UHGV virus genome: UHGV-0293072
DNA from: a virus
Length of the DNA stretch: 10,103 nucleotides
Reading direction: 5' to 3' (one strand)
Of this stretch, positions 1 through 10,103 are shown in pieces. Under the pieces are notes generated by a model. That model had not been told where the DNA came from, made no database searches, and saw nothing but the letters and a program-made list of their open reading frames with translations. The stretch's first letter is position 1; every line of letters starts with the position of its first letter. The translations under genes and the position numbers were made by a program.

Positions 1-146
1 ACGGCCAGCACGGTGGGGTATTGTATGCGCGGCGCAATATGGTGGCCGGTGGCTATATCAGCGGCGGCCTGACGCCTGACCAGGTCGAACAATCGGTCTT
101 TGATTATCTGCTGTTTGGTGACGTTGCTATCCTGAAAATTCCTTTG

Positions 147-1958
147 TCATGCTGCTTTCCCAAAGTACCAGCCCGATGGGCGGTCATATTCGTGATCGAT
201 AGGTTCGTTAATTACGGCGTGCGAAATGGCGAAGAAAACATCTGCATGGCCGGTCGCGTCTGAGCGTTCGGCAACAAATGTCAGCGCGTTGCCGCTGTTG
301 GTTGTCGTGCGCCGGATAGCCATAAAGCTGGCCGGAATTTCGACGCGCTCTTTGTTCGTTTCGTCTACGGCGTCTTTTGCCCATTCGATGCGCTTACGCT
401 CGACAACGTCGATCATCTTCATCACCAGGCGGTTTTTGCTTTCGACGCTGTAAAGAATGGGTGTGGCTTCGCGTGGCGCAAATTTGCTGACAAGGTCATA
501 AACGCCCTTACCTATGCCGGTTGTATCGATCCCGATGTAAGTGATGTTAAAGCGGCGCATAAGCTGCTTTATCTGGTCGGCCTGCCAGCTGAAGTTAAAG
601 CCCTGCCATTGCCAGACGGCCAGCACACGGAAGCGCTCGCCGTCCTCTATGGGGGGCGCGATTAACACAAAGGTGGAATTGTCGCCGGATCGTGACGGGT
701 CAAAGCCTGCCCATACTTCGCGATTGCCGAAGGGCCGCGCAGCGGTCAGATCAAAGTCGCCCCATGTGGCCCGGTCCACTTCACAGCCAACAAGCGCGGA
801 GAACTTGAAAACCGCGTCTTTACTGTCAACAAACTGGCACATGTAGAGCATGGCGAACGCGGTCGGGCTGTATTTGTTGCGCAGCCGTTCAATATCGACA
901 AGCGCCCCGAGGCCGCCTTCGATAGCGTCTTCCATCGTGATGATGTAGCGCCAGATCTGGTCCGGGCAAAGAATGCCCTGGCGCATTTCGCTTTCGTTCG
1001 GGAACTTCACACCTTTGCGTTTAGGGTCGTCCCCGCGCCAGGCTTCGCCAGTCCAGACCGGGTAAGCCTGGTGCGTTTTCGCGCTGGGCGTCGAAAAGTA
1101 GGTCGTGCGGTATTTGTTATGCGTTGCCATTGCGCTGGCAACTTCATGCAGGCGCGTGAATTTCGGGATCCAGAAAACCTCATCGCCATACAGGTGGCCG
1201 TTAAAGCCCTGTGCGGTACTGGCGTTCGTGGACAAAAAGCGCAGTATTGCGCCGTTACTGAGGCGGATATTTTTACCCGTCAGCGTCACGCCGAAATGGT
1301 TCTGGGCGATCTGGACGATGTATTCACGGAAGATTTCCGACTGGGAGCGGCTTGCAGAGAAAAAGACCTGGTTGTCACCGGTAATGACGGCGTCTTCAAA
1401 TGCTTCCCAGGCGAAATAATAGGTCATACCCACCTGGCGGCTTTTCAGAATGAAGCGCCAGTCTTCGCCTTTATGTTCGCGGCAGTGCAGCTGGTACTCG
1501 AAGAGATGTTCCCGCGCCCAGGTGTCGAGCATTTCCGCTGTAATACCGGAAACGTCGTTTTTCTTATACCGGCGCTTTCTTTCCCCAGGTTCCCCGCCTG
1601 CGCTGCTGAGGCAGTACCCTTCACCATCATAAGCCGCTTTCTGGGCCTGAATTTCTGCCAGCTTTTCGGCGTGCTTGTTGTGCTGCGCCATGAGCTTCAC
1701 ATGATGGGCAATCAGATCGCGTAGTTCCTCCAGTTCCAGCGCGGTTTTTTTCTCGCGGCGGGAGAGCTGGTCGATACGGCGGGCGATGACATTTTCCACC
1801 GATTCAACAGGCAGCAGTGATGCCCACTTCCCGACGTCAGCCCAGTGGTAAATTGTACGCGGTGGAATATTCAGTTCCTGCGCAATATCTTTCGGCGACC
1901 AGCTTTTTATATAAAGCGTGCGGGCCGCTTCTTTTAATTCATCGGAATATTTAGCCAT
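147..1958 (-). CDS. Phage terminase large (ATPase) subunit, P2 GpP-like
   Basis: 603-aa ORF, ATG at 1958-1956 and TGA at 149-147. Size, N-terminus (MAKYSDELKEAARTLYIKSW) and position divergent from a scaffold-capsid operon match the P2-family terminase ATPase arrangement. Family assignment is from recall, not a search. Confidence 0.85.
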   Translation of the reverse strand: MAKYSDELKEAARTLYIKSWSPKDIAQELNIPPRTIYHWADVGKWASLLPVESVENVIARRIDQLSRREKKTALELEELRDLIAHHVKLMAQHNKHAEKLAEIQAQKAAYDGEGYCLSSAGGEPGERKRRYKKNDVSGITAEMLDTWAREHLFEYQLHCREHKGEDWRFILKSRQVGMTYYFAWEAFEDAVITGDNQVFFSASRSQSEIFREYIVQIAQNHFGVTLTGKNIRLSNGAILRFLSTNASTAQGFNGHLYGDEVFWIPKFTRLHEVASAMATHNKYRTTYFSTPSAKTHQAYPVWTGEAWRGDDPKRKGVKFPNESEMRQGILCPDQIWRYIITMEDAIEGGLGALVDIERLRNKYSPTAFAMLYMCQFVDSKDAVFKFSALVGCEVDRATWGDFDLTAARPFGNREVWAGFDPSRSGDNSTFVLIAPPIEDGERFRVLAVWQWQGFNFSWQADQIKQLMRRFNITYIGIDTTGIGKGVYDLVSKFAPREATPILYSVESKNRLVMKMIDVVERKRIEWAKDAVDETNKERVEIPASFMAIRRTTTNSGNALTFVAERSDATGHADVFFAISHAVINEPIDHEYDRPSGWYFGKAA

Positions 1959-2135
1959 GCGGCTATTATGGCGGGATTATTTTGCAGAATTGATAATTAA
2001 ATATCGGTAAAAAGTGGCTATCCCATTATAACCGAATACATAAGAAATAAAGCGGTCGCGCTGTATTAATCAATTCGCAATACTGACCACCACAAACGAA
2101 TCATTGCTATTTTAATTCTTCAATAAAGGTCAGTT
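1959..2135. promoter_or_regulatory. Divergent AT-rich intergenic region, probable late promoters for the leftward terminase operon and the rightward scaffold-capsid operon
   Basis: 177-bp AT-rich gap between divergent starts at 1958 (-) and 2136 (+). Contains an imperfect dyad TGTATT-N11-AATACT at 2062-2084, i.e. TGT-N12-GCA rather than the canonical P2 Ogr-type TGT-N12-ACA. No confident -10/-35 identified. Confidence 0.4.
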
Positions 2136-3197
2136 ATGCCGCAATCTCATTACCGCACGGATTGGCTATGTATTGCCACATCTGGACAGGCTGTGGACGG
2201 TCGCACCATTGAACCGCAATGGTTGATTGATGCGGCAGAAACCTACACCCGCAAAACCTACACCGCCATGATTTGGCCGCACCACCCGCAATACGATATC
2301 GGCGAGCGTGAATTTACCTGCAACCTGGGTGAAGTGGACGCGCTGAAAGTGGAAACGGAAGGTGACGTCACGAAGTTATATGCCCAGTTAATCCCGAATC
2401 AATTTTTAATTGATGCCAACCGTATGGGGCAAAAGTTATTTACGTCAGCAGAATTTGTCACTGATTTTGCAGGCAGTGGTCGTGAATATCTTTTCGGGCT
2501 GGCTGTGACGGATATTCCGGCAAGTCTGGGAACGGAAAAACTTAAATTTGTTTTAGCCGGTGAAGAAAAAGACGCCGAGCGCGGGAGTCTGGAAACATTC
2601 AGCTTAGGGAAATTACAGACAAGTAAACCAGATAAAAAAGATTCTTTCTGGTCGCGTTTATTTTCGGCCAGTAAAGATTTTACGCCAACGCCAGAGCCAA
2701 ACACTGATAAGCCCACCGAGGGCGACGGAGAAAAAATGGAAGAATTAAAAGCGCTCATTCAGCAAATGCTGGATCTGCTTAAAAGCGGGAAAGACGCCGC
2801 AGCGGGTGACGCTGACACGGTTGATACCCCGGAACAGGCCGCAGATGTGGTGGCAGATGTTGCCGCCCAGATCGCTGATGCTGCCGACGAGGTGGCCGAG
2901 CTGGCGCAGGACGTTATCGAAAACCCGGAAGACGAAGTCAAAGCGGAAGAATTCAGCGCCGCCAAAGCCAACCTGGCAAAAGTCATGAAGTCATTCAATG
3001 TGACGCCAGCGAAGCGCCCACGCGCCAGCCGTCGCCGTGACTTTTCCGCCCGTCGCCAGCCCGCTGACAACCCAATGGACAACCTCGCCACGCAACTGAC
3101 TACCGCCCTGACCAAGTTGTCAGCGCTGGAAAACGGCAATACGCGCCGCCCTGGCAGCGCACCAGGTGGAAACAAAGAACCGTTTGAGTTTGTTTAA
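2136..3197 (+). CDS. Capsid scaffolding protein, P2 GpO-like
   Basis: 353-aa ORF with Shine-Dalgarno AAAGG 6 nt upstream of ATG 2136. It sits immediately upstream of the major capsid gene and has a long acidic Ala/Asp/Glu-rich C-terminal half typical of scaffolds. P2 gene order P | O N M L. Confidence 0.8.
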   Translation: MPQSHYRTDWLCIATSGQAVDGRTIEPQWLIDAAETYTRKTYTAMIWPHHPQYDIGEREFTCNLGEVDALKVETEGDVTKLYAQLIPNQFLIDANRMGQKLFTSAEFVTDFAGSGREYLFGLAVTDIPASLGTEKLKFVLAGEEKDAERGSLETFSLGKLQTSKPDKKDSFWSRLFSASKDFTPTPEPNTDKPTEGDGEKMEELKALIQQMLDLLKSGKDAAAGDADTVDTPEQAADVVADVAAQIADAADEVAELAQDVIENPEDEVKAEEFSAAKANLAKVMKSFNVTPAKRPRASRRRDFSARRQPADNPMDNLATQLTTALTKLSALENGNTRRPGSAPGGNKEPFEFV

Positions 3198-3225
3198 CAG
3201 CCATTCTTTTCAGGAATAAAAGATT

Positions 3226-4248
3226 ATGCAATTAACCCCAAAAGCAGAGCAGATGCTGCGTAAGTTTGCCGCAGGCCTGGCGAAAGCTAACGGCCAGGTG
3301 GACACGTCGCGCTACTTCTCGCTGACCAATCCGAAAGAAACCCAGCTGCGCAATGCCCTGTTGCAACAGTCTGAGTTCCTGCGCCTGCTGCCTAACGTAC
3401 TGGATGTGGACCAGATCACCGGCCAGGTGGTCAGCACCGGTAAACCGGGTATTTATACCGGGCGCAAAAAGGACGGTCGTTTCTCCCGCCCCCTGGGTGT
3501 TACCGGGAATGAATACAAGCTGGTAGAAACGGATTCCGGTTCGTATCTGCCTTACTCCCTGCTGGTTGTCTGGGCGAACGCGGGCAGTGAAGAGGAGTTC
3601 TTCCAGCGTATTCAGGCATTCAGCAACGAATCATTCGCGCTGGATATGCTGCGCGTGGCATTTAACGGTACAAGTGTTGCAGACGATACCGACCCGGAAA
3701 CCAACCCGAACGGCGAAGACGTCAACATCGGCTGGCACCAAATCGTTAAGGCCCGTTCGTCCGAACAGATTATTTCTGATGCCGTCACTATTGGCGCGTC
3801 GGGGGCTGACTTTATTGGTCTGGATGCGGCAGTCACTGACCTGGTGCACACCTGTATTTATGAGCCATTCCGCAATGACCCGCGCCTGGTTGTGCTGGCT
3901 TCCGCCGACCTTATCGGCAACGACGCCACCACGATGATGAATAAGATTGATCGCCCGACTGAGAAAGTCGCCGCGCAGCTTATTGGTCGCCAGATTGCTG
4001 GCCGTACCGTGTACACCCCGCCGTTTATGCCGGAGGGCCGCCTTATCGTCACCACGCTGGACAATCTGCATATCTACACCCAGCAGGGTACACGTAAGCG
4101 TAAAGCGGAATGGAACGACGACCGCAAGCGCTTCGAGAATAACTATCTGCGCATGGAAGGTTACGGCGTCGAGCATGACGAGCTGTATGCAGCATTCGAC
4201 AAAATCACCCTTGCGACCGGCGAAGTTGCACCGGGAGGGAGCGCATAA
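3226..4248 (+). CDS. Major capsid protein, P2 GpN family
   Basis: 340-aa ORF. Recalled P2 GpN-like blocks: VAFNGTS, NPNGEDVNIGWHQ, YEPFRNDPRLVVLASADLIG, and the C-terminal EHDELYAAFDKITLATGEV. Stop TAA at 4246-4248 lies 2 nt before the next ATG. Confidence 0.85.
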   Translation: MQLTPKAEQMLRKFAAGLAKANGQVDTSRYFSLTNPKETQLRNALLQQSEFLRLLPNVLDVDQITGQVVSTGKPGIYTGRKKDGRFSRPLGVTGNEYKLVETDSGSYLPYSLLVVWANAGSEEEFFQRIQAFSNESFALDMLRVAFNGTSVADDTDPETNPNGEDVNIGWHQIVKARSSEQIISDAVTIGASGADFIGLDAAVTDLVHTCIYEPFRNDPRLVVLASADLIGNDATTMMNKIDRPTEKVAAQLIGRQIAGRTVYTPPFMPEGRLIVTTLDNLHIYTQQGTRKRKAEWNDDRKRFENNYLRMEGYGVEHDELYAAFDKITLATGEVAPGGSA

Positions 4249-4250
4249 AA

Positions 4251-4952
4251 ATGGCCATGACCCCGTGTCAGCGACACCGAGCACGCGCGAAAGCCGCAAA
4301 GGCGCTGGATAAGTGCGAAGCACTGACGGCATCGCCGGTCAGCTTTCACATTCAAATGCTGGAGCTGGAAAAGGATGTTGAACGGCTTCGCAGTCTGACG
4401 CGTGCAGACCGTATGGACATGAAGCGCGACGTTCTTCTGCCGCGCTGGATGCCGACCGTTGAGGCATATCTTGCCGGTGATGCCCGCTTTGCCAATCCGG
4501 CCCTGGTTTACTGCGTGATCTGGCTGTTCGATACGGGGGAAATGGGCAAGGCGCTGGACTGGGCTGACGTGGCTATCAGTGAGAGCCAGGCCACGCCGGA
4601 GAACTTCAAAAGCAACCTGCCCGCCTTTGTGGCCGACACGGTGCTGGAGTGGGCGATCATGCAGGCGGAAGCCGGTCACAGCATCGAACCCTATTTCAGC
4701 CGCACGTTTGAAAACATCCGCGAAAAGTGGCGTTTGCACGAAGACATTAACGCGAAGTGGTTCAAATTCGCCGGTCTTTACCTGCTGCGCGACGAGAAGG
4801 GCCAGCCGCGTGCCACTGCCGTGGATGATGTGAATACGCTGGAACAGGCCGACGCCCTGCTGGCCCAGGCGGCGGCGTACAACAAAAACGCCGGAGTTAA
4901 GACCATGCGCGAAAAAATCCGCGCCCGGATTAACGGCCTGACCCAGCTTTAA
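4251..4952 (+). CDS. Terminase small (endonuclease) subunit, P2 GpM-like
   Basis: 233-aa ORF directly after the capsid gene, with a GGGAGGGA Shine-Dalgarno upstream. Position and size fit P2 GpM. Confidence 0.75.
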   Translation: MAMTPCQRHRARAKAAKALDKCEALTASPVSFHIQMLELEKDVERLRSLTRADRMDMKRDVLLPRWMPTVEAYLAGDARFANPALVYCVIWLFDTGEMGKALDWADVAISESQATPENFKSNLPAFVADTVLEWAIMQAEAGHSIEPYFSRTFENIREKWRLHEDINAKWFKFAGLYLLRDEKGQPRATAVDDVNTLEQADALLAQAAAYNKNAGVKTMREKIRARINGLTQL

Positions 4953-5054
4953 CGACTCCCGCAAGCCGGGACGGGCGCGGGGGAGGCATCAACCATACGG
5001 TTGTTGGCCGTGGAACCCGTCAGCCCGTTTCTATTGCAAAACCGAGGTACGCCA

Positions 5055-5528
5055 ATGAGTGGCCCTAGTTTCAGTATCAGCGGCAAGCCGGTGACGGTGA
5101 CGCCAACAGCGATCACCAACGGCGTGGCGTTCTGGCCCGATCTTGATCTGGCCGAGTTTCAGAAGGTGCGCACGTTGCCCGCTGACCTGCCGCCAGAAAC
5201 GGCAGGCGTGGCCCTGCTGGCCGCCATTGCGGAGGTAAACGACGCGCTGGCCGACGTGGTGACGTACTGGAACGCGAAAGCCTACGAACGGGCCGCAGAT
5301 GTACCGGGTGCAAAGATGGGCGACGAAACCCAATTAAAAGCCCAGTAAAAAAAAGCGGTCTACGCCCGCGCAAAGGCCGATTTACTGGGGGAATTCGCCA
5401 CCATCGGGCGACGTGAATCGCATCCGGGGCAGGAAAGCCAGGACACCCGCGCCAGCCTGCTGGCCGAGGCGGCCAATGTGATGCGAAACATGCTGCGACA
5501 ACCACGCGTTGGGGTGCATCTGATATGA
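5055..5528 (+). pseudogene. Head completion/stabilisation protein (P2 GpL-like) interrupted by an in-frame TAA at 5346-5348
   Basis: ATG 5055 with GAGG 7 nt upstream. The frame is open 5055-5345, hits TAA at 5346-5348, then the same frame stays open for 59 more sense codons (KKAVYARAKADLLGEFATIGRRESHPGQ...RVGVHLI) to TGA 5526-5528, which overlaps the ATG of the next gene. Combined length would be 157 aa, in the size range of GpL. Confidence 0.65.
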
Positions 5529-6001
5529 GCCAGCTTGAAAGCCTGACGGCGTTTATTACGGAAAATCTGCCGCCTGATGCCATGCAGATGTTTTCCAGTT
5601 CAATGGAGGATTGCGAGCTGGTACGCAACGCCAAAGCGCTGGGAAACAACCAGCGCCGGATCGGGGTGCTGACTTATACCGCCCGTTTGTCGTGGGATGA
5701 TTTCCCCTACCGCAAATATTCGCCGGGGCTGATTTATGCCCTGGTGCTGGCCTGGGTAGATGAGTTCGCCAACGAGCTGCGCGACGAGCTGAAGTTAGCC
5801 GATCCCACCGTGGACCCGGAGTTCGACGACGAAGGGTCATGCATTCTGGATGTGGTTGTCCCGCTGGTTGATCCGCTGGTCCTGCGTGAAGTGGAAAAAG
5901 GGCCGATCCCCTTCAAGGGTAAGAAATGGGACATCGTAAACCCCGAAATCTGGGAGGCGTCGCAACTGGAATTTATTGTCCAGCGTGGTGAGGCATCGTG
6001 A
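5525..6001 (+). CDS. Hypothetical phage structural protein in the neck/tail-completion position (possibly Mu gp36/DUF1320-like)
   Basis: 158-aa ORF. Its ATG 5525 overlaps the upstream TGA (ATGA) and its TGA 5999-6001 overlaps the downstream GTG start, indicating translational coupling. The family suggestion is a weak recollection only. Confidence 0.6.
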   Translation: MSQLESLTAFITENLPPDAMQMFSSSMEDCELVRNAKALGNNQRRIGVLTYTARLSWDDFPYRKYSPGLIYALVLAWVDEFANELRDELKLADPTVDPEFDDEGSCILDVVVPLVDPLVLREVEKGPIPFKGKKWDIVNPEIWEASQLEFIVQRGEAS

Positions 6002-6693
6002 TCCGTGGGGAGCTGAACCAACAACAGCTAAAGCAAATGCGGGAAACGCTGGCAAAAGCTGACCTTCCCCCGCGTAAGCGCCAGCGCCTTTTATGGCGTA
6101 TTGCAAAGCTGGGCATTGTCACAGCGGCAAAACGTCACCAGCGCCAGCAGGCGGCCCCGGACGGTACGCCGTGGGAGCCGCGCAAGCGTGGCAAAGGGAA
6201 AATGTTAAAAGGGCTGCCCAAACTGCTGGCTGTGCGTGAAATGCCGGAGATTCAGGGGGTAAGAATTTACCTCAAGGGCGGGAACTACCTGAACGGGACG
6301 AAGCCCATTGCGGCGGGTCTGGTCGGTGCGGTCCAGCAGGACGGTGCGCGGATCCAGATGAAAGCCAGTAACGCCCCGCGTAAGCCGCAGATTAACCAGC
6401 CCGCGTTACCGCGACAGGCCAAACGGCTGCGGGCGCTGGGCTACAAAACCCGCAAGGGTAAACGATGGGTTAAGCCGTCCAGCAGGCAAATCATGGAAAC
6501 CATGAGCATGGCCCAGGCGGGATTACTGATTCGAAAACTGAAAGGCACACCCTCAAAACGCACATGGACCATTGATATTCCTGGACGCGTTTTTCTGGGG
6601 GTGAGCAATGACGAATTTAACCAAATTATTGCGCGGCAAATGCAGGCAATCGGCTTCGGCTGGGACGTCACCGCGCAGCAAATCAGGGGGTAA
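5998..6693 (+). CDS. Phage virion morphogenesis / tail completion protein (P2 GpS, Mu gpK family)
   Basis: 231-aa basic protein with GTG start preceded by GGTGAGG. Motifs GTPWEPRKRGKG, RKGKRWVKP and IDIPGRVFLGV resemble the recalled W..P..R..G / GKRW / IPARPFL signature of the virion morphogenesis family. Confidence 0.65.
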   Translation: MIRGELNQQQLKQMRETLAKADLPPRKRQRLLWRIAKLGIVTAAKRHQRQQAAPDGTPWEPRKRGKGKMLKGLPKLLAVREMPEIQGVRIYLKGGNYLNGTKPIAAGLVGAVQQDGARIQMKASNAPRKPQINQPALPRQAKRLRALGYKTRKGKRWVKPSSRQIMETMSMAQAGLLIRKLKGTPSKRTWTIDIPGRVFLGVSNDEFNQIIARQMQAIGFGWDVTAQQIRG

Positions 6694-7146
6694 AAATGAC
6701 CTGGCCTACAGTCAACGTCAGTCAGAAAAACCGCTTCAACGGCACAACGAACGACGTCGAGCGCGTCATCCTCTTTGTGGGTTACGGCGACACTAACATC
6801 GGGAAAACCCAGTCGCTGAATACCGGCAGCGATCTGGATAAAGCCCTGGGCGACAAAGACAGCCCGTTAAAAAATATGGTGGCCGCTGCGGCCAATAACG
6901 CCGGACAGAACTGGTTTGCTTACGTGCATGTGCTGGCAGAGCCAGACAAGGGAGCCGAGGGCTACAAACCAGACGAAGACTGGATGAACGCAGTCAAACA
7001 GGCCCAGAGCGTGGCATCCGTGGAAGGGGTTGTCCTGGCATTTGATACCGCCGCCGCGGCCACCATTAACCGCGCAACGGAAATGCGCGTCACCTTACAG
7101 GCCAGTTTTGGGCGTTTTATCTGGTTTGCCCTTGCTGTGGGTGGGC

Positions 7147-7190
7147 CCGAAAAAGACGAAGTCATAATCGTGATACCACATCGGCACGCT
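7147..7190. repeat. Left junction repeats: A (7147-7161, ccgaaaaagacgaag) followed by B (7162-7190, tcataatcgtgataccacatcggcacgct)
   Basis: Exact reverse complements are present at 7454-7468 (A') and 7469-7497 (B'); verified base by base. Confidence 0.9.
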
Positions 7191-7468
7191 GTAGCGGCTT
7201 GCCTGCAAAGACTGCAACACAGCCAGATCAATTTCTGCGCCCGTCCCGTCCACCGGCAGGCCGTCGCGCCCCAGCGCGGTGACTGCACCGGTTGCGACGC
7301 GGGCGGGGCTGTCTGCCACCGTCACCGAACGGTTACACAGGCGACCAACCAGGACGCCGGGTTCGTTACCCCACAGGCGCGGGACCAGTTGCACCCCAGG
7401 CGAGGCAATACCGGCCTGGAGTTCAGCCAGGCGCGTCACATAGTCGCTCCATGCTTCGTCTTTTTCGG
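7162..7468 (-). other. Inverted internal block of the sheath-like gene (coding sense on minus strand)
   Basis: The minus strand reads SEKDE-AWSDYVTRLAELQAGIASPGVQLVPRLWGNEPGVLVGRLCNRSVTVADSPARVATGAVTALGRDGLPVDGTGAEIDLAVLQSLQASRY-SVPMWYHDYD, sharing EKDE with the plus-strand N-terminal fragment and SVPMWYHDYD with the plus-strand C-terminal fragment. Confidence 0.75.
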
Positions 7469-7497
7469 AGCGTGCCGATGTGGTATCACGATTATGA
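7454..7497. repeat. Right junction repeats: A' (7454-7468, cttcgtctttttcgg) followed by B' (7469-7497, agcgtgccgatgtggtatcacgattatga)
   Basis: Reverse complements of A and B at the left junction. The order on the right is A'-B', not B'-A' as a simple 44-bp inverted repeat would give. Confidence 0.9.
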
Positions 7498-7885
7498 CGG
7501 CATCTACTGGGCTGACGGTCGCACCCTGGACGTTGAAGGCGGTGATTATCAGGTGATTGAAAACGTGCGCGTGGTTGATAAAGCCTCCCGCCGCGTCCGT
7601 CTGCGTGCAATCCCTAAAATTGCCGATCGTTCGCTGAACAGTACACCGGGCAGCATTGCCGCGCATGAAACCTATTTCGGCAAGCCGCTGCGTGAAATGG
7701 CGATTTCAACCCAGATCAATGGTGTCGAATTTCCGGGCGAAGTGAAGCCACCAAAAGACGGCGATATCACCATCACCTGGACCAGTAGCGAAGCGGTACA
7801 GATTTACCTTGTGGTTCGACCGTATGAGAGCGCGAAAGAAATCGGCGTCAGCATCGAACTGGACACCTCACTGGAGAGCTAACCA

Positions 7886-9471: not shown

Positions 9472-9737
9472 GTAAACCGAACAAAATCACCATGACCGTG
9501 GCGGGTGTCAATCTGAGCTTTGAGCCGAATAAAACCGCGTTCAATAACCTGATTAACGAAATGACCATGACCAATAAGATTGCGCCAATGGCGACGTATC
9601 TGGGGCGTATCGTTGATGCCGACTGTAAAGAGGCACTTAGCAAGCTGATGGAAGATTATCCGGGTTGCGAAATGCAGATCGTTGAAAAGGTTAACGAGAT
9701 TTACTCCCCCAAACTTGAGATCGAAGTAAAAAACTGA
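9468..9737 (+). CDS. Putative tail assembly chaperone (G-like) with a 3'-terminal -1 slippery site
   Basis: 89-aa ORF with AAGGA Shine-Dalgarno. It ends ...GTA AAA AAC TGA with heptamer A_AAA_AAC in the zero frame, and the -1 frame is open from there to the window end. Position ahead of the presumed tape-measure region fits the conserved chaperone frameshift arrangement. Confidence 0.5.
   Translation: MSKPNKITMTVAGVNLSFEPNKTAFNNLINEMTMTNKIAPMATYLGRIVDADCKEALSKLMEDYPGCEMQIVEKVNEIYSPKLEIEVKN
9728..9734 (+). promoter_or_regulatory. Candidate -1 programmed ribosomal frameshift heptamer A_AAA_AAC
   Basis: Canonical X_XXY_YYZ slippery pattern in the correct phase, 1 nt before the zero-frame stop. 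No downstream pseudoknot or stem-loop was evaluated. Confidence 0.45.
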
Positions 9738-10103
9738 CGGCGCGGGTAGCGGCCATTCGCACGAATGCCCTGGAGCAATACCTTGCCTTGAGCGCGTCCT
9801 CTGCTACGCCTTTGGAACCCACTTCTGCAAGTGCGGCGTTCATCTCATACGCCGGACCCACCACGCCCGCGATGGACTGCGCCACGCCCCAGACAGCCGC
9901 CGCACCGATCCCGATTTTTGTAAAAGACGCCTGCGATTTTTCAGCAAAGCCGGACAACGAAGATGCGATGAAAGGTGCAATGGCGGGCCTGTCCGATATG
10001 GACCTGCCCCGCGTCACCATCGCGGCCAATACCCTGGCGGCAGGCGTCAAGGCCAGCGGCGAAGAGGCAGGCGAATACATCGGTGCGATGGCGTCACGTT
10101 TCA
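9728..10103 (+). CDS. -1 frame extension of the chaperone (GT-like fusion) and/or 5' part of the next tail gene; truncated by the window end
   Basis: The -1 frame has no stop from 9719 to 10103 (over 125 codons). High-quality codon usage from about 9968 (MKGAMAGLSDMDLPRVTIAANTLAAGVKASGEEAGEYIGAMASRF). No good Shine-Dalgarno before the in-frame ATGs at 9872 or 9968, favouring access by frameshifting. Confidence 0.4.

Follow-up and report, generated by a model that had tools for sequence, protein, structure and literature searches.

The left edge of the virus genome sequence UHGV-0293072 raises the question of what became of its portal gene. The window analyzed here, which is the whole 10,103-nt stretch, is the late-gene block of a P2-like Peduoviridae phage close to Salmonella phage SI7, and its nearest named relatives for the terminase-portal (P-Q) operon are phages SI7, SW3 and SW5 (Peduoviridae, Irrigatiovirus). 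The window resembles the P-Q operon of these phages in gene order (terminase, scaffold, capsid, small terminase, gpL, gpR and so on), in the ATGA overlap between the portal start and the terminase stop, and in DNA identity, which is 98% to SI7 and SW5 and 99.96% to a Logan contig. Where a P2-like portal gene would continue on the terminase strand, the window holds 141 bases in which the initial annotation saw no intact portal gene.

The terminase large subunit gene is intact (147-1958, minus strand) and encodes a gpP-like protein of 603 aa with the Pfam domains Terminase_5, Terminase_6N and Terminase_6C. An exact-product look-up retrieved identical copies of this protein from four contigs of 20-50 kb, and a Citrobacter genome and an IMG/VR contig each carry it at 100% identity. 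On the same strand, an ATG (150-148) shares bases with the terminase TGA (149-147) in the manner of a P2-type portal start. This ATG opens the true start of the portal gene, codons 1-3 (ATG ACA AAG, 142-150, minus strand), which are identical to the start of the intact portal gene in the closest available sequence (L002 7809-7817, described below). Translation bore out the initial reading that the frame yields only MTKEFSG before a TAG at 129-127: the residual frame (127-150, minus strand) comprises the three genuine portal codons, four junction-derived codons and the stop. A continuous portal ORF of ~340-355 aa on the terminase strand was not found, as the frame stops after seven codons within the 150 nt in view, and translation of the three minus-strand frames of the left 150 nt gave no portal sequence. 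The minus frame across 146-1 is indeed stop-free and contains the AGG (two), ATA (three) and CGA codons listed in the initial annotation, but the accompanying statement that it lacks any ATG or GTG was incorrect, the frame holding one GTG (codon 46, at about window 11-9) as well as one TTG. On the opposite strand, no stop interrupts the frame 3-146, which gives GQHGGVLYARRNMVAGGYISGGLTPDQVEQSVFDYLLFGDVAILKIPL. If the sequence is accepted as it stands, this locus codes for no portal and the phage element is dead.

The closest sequence to the window was Logan contig SRR11412904_3608, which at 30,454 nt is about one phage genome long and whose positions are given here in L002 or L003 coordinates. 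In this sibling contig, an identical terminase precedes, and overlaps by 4 nt, an intact gene for a 353-aa portal protein, which scored 51 bits against Pfam PF04860 (cut-off 39.1). Window 142-7161 is collinear with the sibling at 99.96% identity and, outside the flipped segments described below, ~7 kb of the window differs from it by two substitutions (~0.03%). The sequence to the left of the window was deduced from this 99.96%-identical contig.

Comparison with the sibling identified the 141 leftmost bases. Window 1-141 (plus strand, opposite to the terminase) is identical at 141 of 141 positions, on the opposite strand, to nt 218-358 of the sibling portal gene (E = 4e-71), corresponding to L002 8026-8166 or to the reverse complement of L003 996-856, and spans portal residues 74-119 plus partial codons. 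In a sensitive search with window 1-150, the same bases mapped within the portal genes of phages SW5, SI7 and SW3, again on the opposite strand, at 94.3% identity. The peptide read from the plus frame 3-140 matches residues 74-119 of the intact sibling portal in 46 of 46 positions (BLASTP E = 2e-30). The initial annotation had proposed a search against portal families, and here the outcome was divided: a Pfam scan of the 48-aa plus-frame peptide, which is too short for such a scan, returned no matches, and the identity of the peptide was set by direct comparison with the sibling portal instead. Homology to portal proteins is therefore present, but on the wrong strand. The view that the plus strand 3-146 reads as a plausible protein was well founded: the frame is real protein-coding sequence, with a match far beyond chance. 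The supposed convergent protein is the portal itself, flipped, and the stop-free minus frame is the antisense of portal codons 74-119.

The junction at which the flipped portal piece gives way to collinear sequence (portal codons 1-3 and the terminase), designated J0, could be placed to the base. Exact-match extension from both segments ends at 141|142, with 0 nt of overlap and no microhomology. The break comes directly after portal codon 3 and is followed by portal nt 358 to 218 in reverse complement, and in-silico inversion of L002 7818-8166 (intact portal nt 10-358) yields MTKEFSG and its stop codon exactly. Unlike the continuous 353-aa portal ORF of the relatives, the portal gene of the window is thus cut after codon 3 and continues as a flipped internal piece of the same gene. 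Of the explanations offered initially for the left edge, the one that invoked a second inverted segment is the one that these matches support.

The arrangement in related genomes was uniform and did not include the flip. With window 1-2000 as a megablast query against E. coli genomes and phage records, collinear matches started only at 139-142; 19 E. coli prophages matched at 96.9-97.0% identity and Salmonella phages SI7, SW3 and SW5 at 98.1%, and in all these records the portal is annotated beside the terminase, in normal order. A wider set gathered with the terminase as query comprised 119 related loci, of which 39 came from species genomes ranging from Citrobacter to Vibrio and 80 from IMG/VR contigs. 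The portal was collinear on the terminase strand in 114 of the 114 loci that reach past the terminase stop, at portal identities from 31% to 99%, and relative to every one of the 35 loci alignable at the DNA level, window 1-141 was flipped at the same portal position. The J0 junction, searched as an exact pattern (window 121-162), was not found in viral, genome or metagenome collections. The portal flip is private to this sequence.

The inverted duplications that had been reported at 7147-7497 proved, when examined alongside the left edge, to mark a flip of the same kind, and a third one was found near the right end. The second flipped segment measures 308 nt and lies in the DUF2586 tail gene (7161-7468, plus strand), where it matches L003 8517-8210 in reverse complement with 100% identity. 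Its flanks are collinear with the sibling up to L003 8224 and again from L003 8488, with edge duplications of 15 nt and 30 nt; because of these duplications, the window contains a 37-nt inverted repeat (7154-7190 / 7469-7505) that the intact sibling does not have. The third flipped segment, of ~173 nt, occupies the 5' part of the tape-measure gene (9791-9963, plus strand) and corresponds to the reverse complement of L003 ~11184-11012, with ~200 nt and ~73 nt of intact sibling sequence deleted at its sides. Its left junction, J3, was placed at 9790|9791 with the E. coli allele as reference. After this flip the sequence resumes at L003 11262, and the terminal collinear piece of the tape-measure gene that follows junction J4 (9963-10103, plus strand, 141 nt) is an exact match to L003 11262-11402. 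At all flips the joined pieces are inverted, and the joins span 250-380 nt. Neither the second nor the third arrangement is shared by any of the E. coli prophages, and an exact search with a haplotype-specific 85-mer (window 9706-9790) found no match. A clean in-place inversion as the common form of all three flips was ruled out for the second and third by their edge duplications or deletions; these two flips are imprecise and look like inserted pieces in the wrong orientation.

A further private change affects the head-completion gene gpL (5055-5528), in which a TAC codon has become TAA (5346-5348, plus strand), with a second private C-to-A change at 5338. The two changes are separated by 10 nt within an A-rich stretch of gpL, and both positions are C in the Logan sibling, in phage SW5 and in an E. 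coli prophage. Clustered C-to-A changes in such a homopolymer-like context look like consensus errors. Exact-product look-ups with the truncated DUF2586 and truncated gpL ORF products found neither on record. Four essential late genes are consequently broken in this window, the portal, DUF2586 tail and tape-measure genes by flips and gpL by the nonsense change.

The sequence overlap between the joined segments was 0, 1, 0, 0 and 1 nt at J0 to J4, respectively. For random blunt joins in random sequence, the calculated probability is ~0.56 for no shared base and ~0.28 for one. Overlaps of 0-1 nt are as random blunt joins give, and speak against microhomology-primed template switching.

The flip, its exact breakpoint, its uniqueness and the two additional local flips of the same type are matters of observation. 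As to their origin, the sequence features point to a chimeric or misassembled contig as the most likely source, an origin not raised in the initial annotation, and we consider this reading probable; the flips are accordingly graded as most likely not a heritable feature of the phage. Strand-switched chimeric DNA, or small pieces in the wrong orientation, would have been built into the contig during assembly of a mixed or low-coverage sample, and the contig would have ended where the chimeric paths rejoin the normal assembly graph. One sign of an artefact is the occurrence of three local flips within 10 kb, each in an essential gene, against only two substitutions in 7 kb. Another is the position of the window ends, both of which lie exactly 141 nt past the outermost junction (left piece, 1-141; right piece, 9963-10103, with one ambiguous base), a coincidence that is very unlikely if the ends are independent of the junctions. 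A de Bruijn unitig built with k = 141 would stop in this way where a variant path merges back into a node that a second path also uses, and 141 is the default maximum k of the MEGAHIT assembler. If this reading of the ends is true, the window would be the whole contig and the normal portal path would be present in the same graph.

The surroundings of J3 provide a third sign. All five SNPs that distinguish this region from the sibling are alleles of the E. coli-prophage haplotype. They reach no further than 22 nt on the left side of the junction and 15 nt on its right side, and L003-type alleles are back within 59 nt and 31 nt, respectively. The sites of this patch are ~380 nt apart in native order and become contiguous only in the rearranged order, in which the patch is read-sized. 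A haplotype patch of this kind would result if one chimeric read from a second strain had bridged the join.

The graph argument has its own limits. A strict unitig model predicts breaks inside each junction too if the normal path is present, and there are none, such that additional assumptions are needed, for instance that low-coverage branches were pruned. A really rearranged, decaying prophage would, moreover, look identical inside the window. The simple concatenation of read 1 and read 2 was considered as a source of the joins; by their coordinates, it covers the forward-then-reverse joins and not the reverse-then-forward ones, and was dropped.

Two known classes of artefact offer points of comparison. 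Chimeras formed during multiple displacement amplification (MDA), and related strand-switch artefacts of library preparation, usually remain at read level and do not dominate the consensus. In the survey of Lasken and Stockwell (2007; PMC1855051), such chimeras occurred at about one junction per 10-22 kb, 85% of them were inverted, and at least 2 bp of complementarity was present in 93.5% of the proximal inverted ones. The window resembles MDA inverted chimeras in its inverted joins, in the distance between the joined pieces (250-350 nt on the same molecule, within the <10 kb expected of such chimeras) and in the presence of several junctions per 10 kb, and differs from them in its 0-1 nt overlaps at five junctions, short of the 2 bp. 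A classic MDA chimera hence fits in orientation and proximity but fits poorly at the junctions, which are devoid of the usual complementarity of at least 2 bp. As judged from the sequence, the likeness to local inversion misassemblies consists of small pieces (173-308 nt) that sit at their own position with edges overlapping or falling short of their neighbors, of a contig that ends one 141-mer past the outermost junctions, and of one join that bears a second-haplotype patch; what sets the window apart from these is that it contains no Ns or gaps.

The main competing explanation is a real rearrangement, that is, a defective P2-like prophage or phage genome that carries local inversions, in which double-strand or staggered breaks, or strand switching in replication, would have destroyed the portal, DUF2586 and tape-measure genes. 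The window ends within the flipped portal piece; if simple, the portal inversion would measure ~349 bp (nt 10-358), with its second breakpoint expected 208 nt beyond the left edge and portal nt 359 following there. The clean junctions and high-quality flanks are compatible with such an event, as are the patterns of the other two flips, which resemble duplication-inversion-duplication (7161-7468) and deletion-inversion-deletion (9791-9963), both of which staggered breaks or template switching are known to leave. A decaying element would suit the private nonsense codon of gpL, and the SNPs near J3 are natural alleles and not noise. We nevertheless regard this explanation as possible but rather unlikely. 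It would place three independent lethal flips and a nonsense change beside a point divergence of only ~0.03%, whereas decay normally brings substitutions as well; no junction is shared with any relative; the junctions lack the microhomology that template switching would need; and both the 141-nt symmetry of the window ends and the foreign-haplotype patch, centered on J3 only in the rearranged order, are left unexplained. A variant of this explanation, which we hold to be improbable, is that the three flips are real and share one cause, a mutational process making microhomology-free, imprecise inversions of ~170-350 bp in the late genes of a resident P2-like prophage. Staggered-nick or break-and-rejoin events caused by a nuclease activity of the host or of a competing element might scramble and silence the prophage in this manner, and the process would have to be so rapid that hardly any point divergence from the intact sibling had built up.

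Regulated inversion was also weighed. A programmed invertible element, either an intragenic inverton or an invertase switch, could toggle the 5' end of the portal gene, and the small size and intragenic location of the flipped segment, together with the 37-nt inverted repeat around the second one, recall invertons and the Gin, Cin and Hin invertase systems, in which a short intragenic DNA segment likewise occurs in the opposite orientation. The resemblance does not extend further, and such an element is highly improbable here. At the portal breakpoints of the sibling there are no inverted repeats, the best candidate being an 18-nt pair with 72% identity that is shifted by 25 nt and belongs to a set of 13 chance-level pairs, and the DUF2586 region of the sibling has only one 9-nt inverted pair; the repeat at 7154-7190 / 7469-7505 was made by the edge duplications and does not belong to the unflipped form. 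Relatives show a single orientation, the flipped state occurring in 0 of 35 at the DNA level and in 0 of 114 at the protein level. No recombinase family was detected among the called genes of the block or in ~20 kb of the sibling (structural, lysis, ogr and replication gpA genes), and the flipped state specifies a 7-aa peptide and no sensible alternative protein. Recombination between repeats was rejected for the same breakpoints, the intact sequence having no meaningful inverted repeats at any of them. A similarly negligible probability attaches to the two remaining proposals of the initial annotation, that the left edge is a prophage end or host fusion, or that a portal with a non-canonical minus-strand start lies within 1-146. 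All that speaks for them is that the minus strand has no long ORF with an ATG. No host DNA was seen to the left of the break, where bases 1-141 are phage portal sequence from ~210-350 nt away, matched at every position on the opposite strand, and so a prophage boundary finds no support; an unusual start fares no better, as the portal begins with its canonical ATG ACA AAG at 150-142, is broken after codon 3 and, counted from the ATG, meets a stop after seven codons, and the stop-free minus frame is the antisense of codons 74-119 of the same gene.

The main value of these observations is as a quality-control flag for this contig. The features that it presents at face value, namely a portal-less P2-like element, a convergent ORF at the terminase 3' end and odd inverted duplications, dissolve once they are recognized as flipped copies of its own genes. 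For annotation, this means that no new gene should be assigned at 3-146 or to the mechanical ORF at 21-263, and that no prophage boundary should be drawn at the left edge. Nothing suggests a new gene or a new system, the strand flip being the only departure from the P-Q arrangement. Were the flips shown to be real, the window would be an unusually clean example of a prophage killed by several small inversions that lack microhomology, and work on prophage decay would gain modestly from it.

The phage represented by the window exists in an intact version on the Logan contig SRR11412904_3608, which, at 30,454 nt, is about one phage genome long and is 99.96% identical to the window across the collinear part. 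Set against this sibling and other relatives, the window carries private changes in several of its late genes. The second strand flip private to it is a reverse-complemented segment of 308 nt (7161-7468) within the DUF2586 tail gene, whose edges are duplicated over 15 nt and 30 nt, and it is these duplications that create the 37-nt inverted repeat surrounding the flip (7154-7190 / 7469-7505). The flip shortens the gene, which encodes 380 aa in relatives but is reduced in the window to an ORF of 286 aa (6696-7556).

The third private flip, a reverse-complemented segment of about 173 nt (9791-9963), lies in the 5' region of the tape-measure gene. On one side of it the window lacks about 200 nt of the intact sibling's sequence, namely the gpE' extension together with the start of the tape-measure gene; on the other side, about 73 nt are absent. 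The minus-strand ORF called mechanically at 9691-10080 is a by-product of this rearrangement. Around the left junction of the flip (9790|9791), the window differs from its closest sibling at five positions (9769-9805), each of which carries an allele found in E. coli prophages. This patch of a second haplotype, 37-125 nt in size, forms one unbroken stretch in the rearranged sequence but not in the native gene order.

On both sides, the distance from the outermost rearrangement junction to the end of the window is exactly 141 nt (1-141 and 9963-10103), which suggests that the window is a complete contig of a k=141 de Bruijn assembly, halted at nodes common to other paths.

Two C-to-A substitutions private to the window fall within an A-rich run of the head-completion gene gpL (5055-5528), spaced by 10 nt: one at 5338 and one at 5348, the latter converting TAC to TAA. 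Both positions are C in the Logan sibling, in phage SW5 and in one E. coli prophage.

The exact terminase protein of the window is also encoded by Citrobacter meridianamericanus BR102 and by IMG/VR UViG_2504756088_000008, so that the phage lineage circulates among several Enterobacteriaceae.
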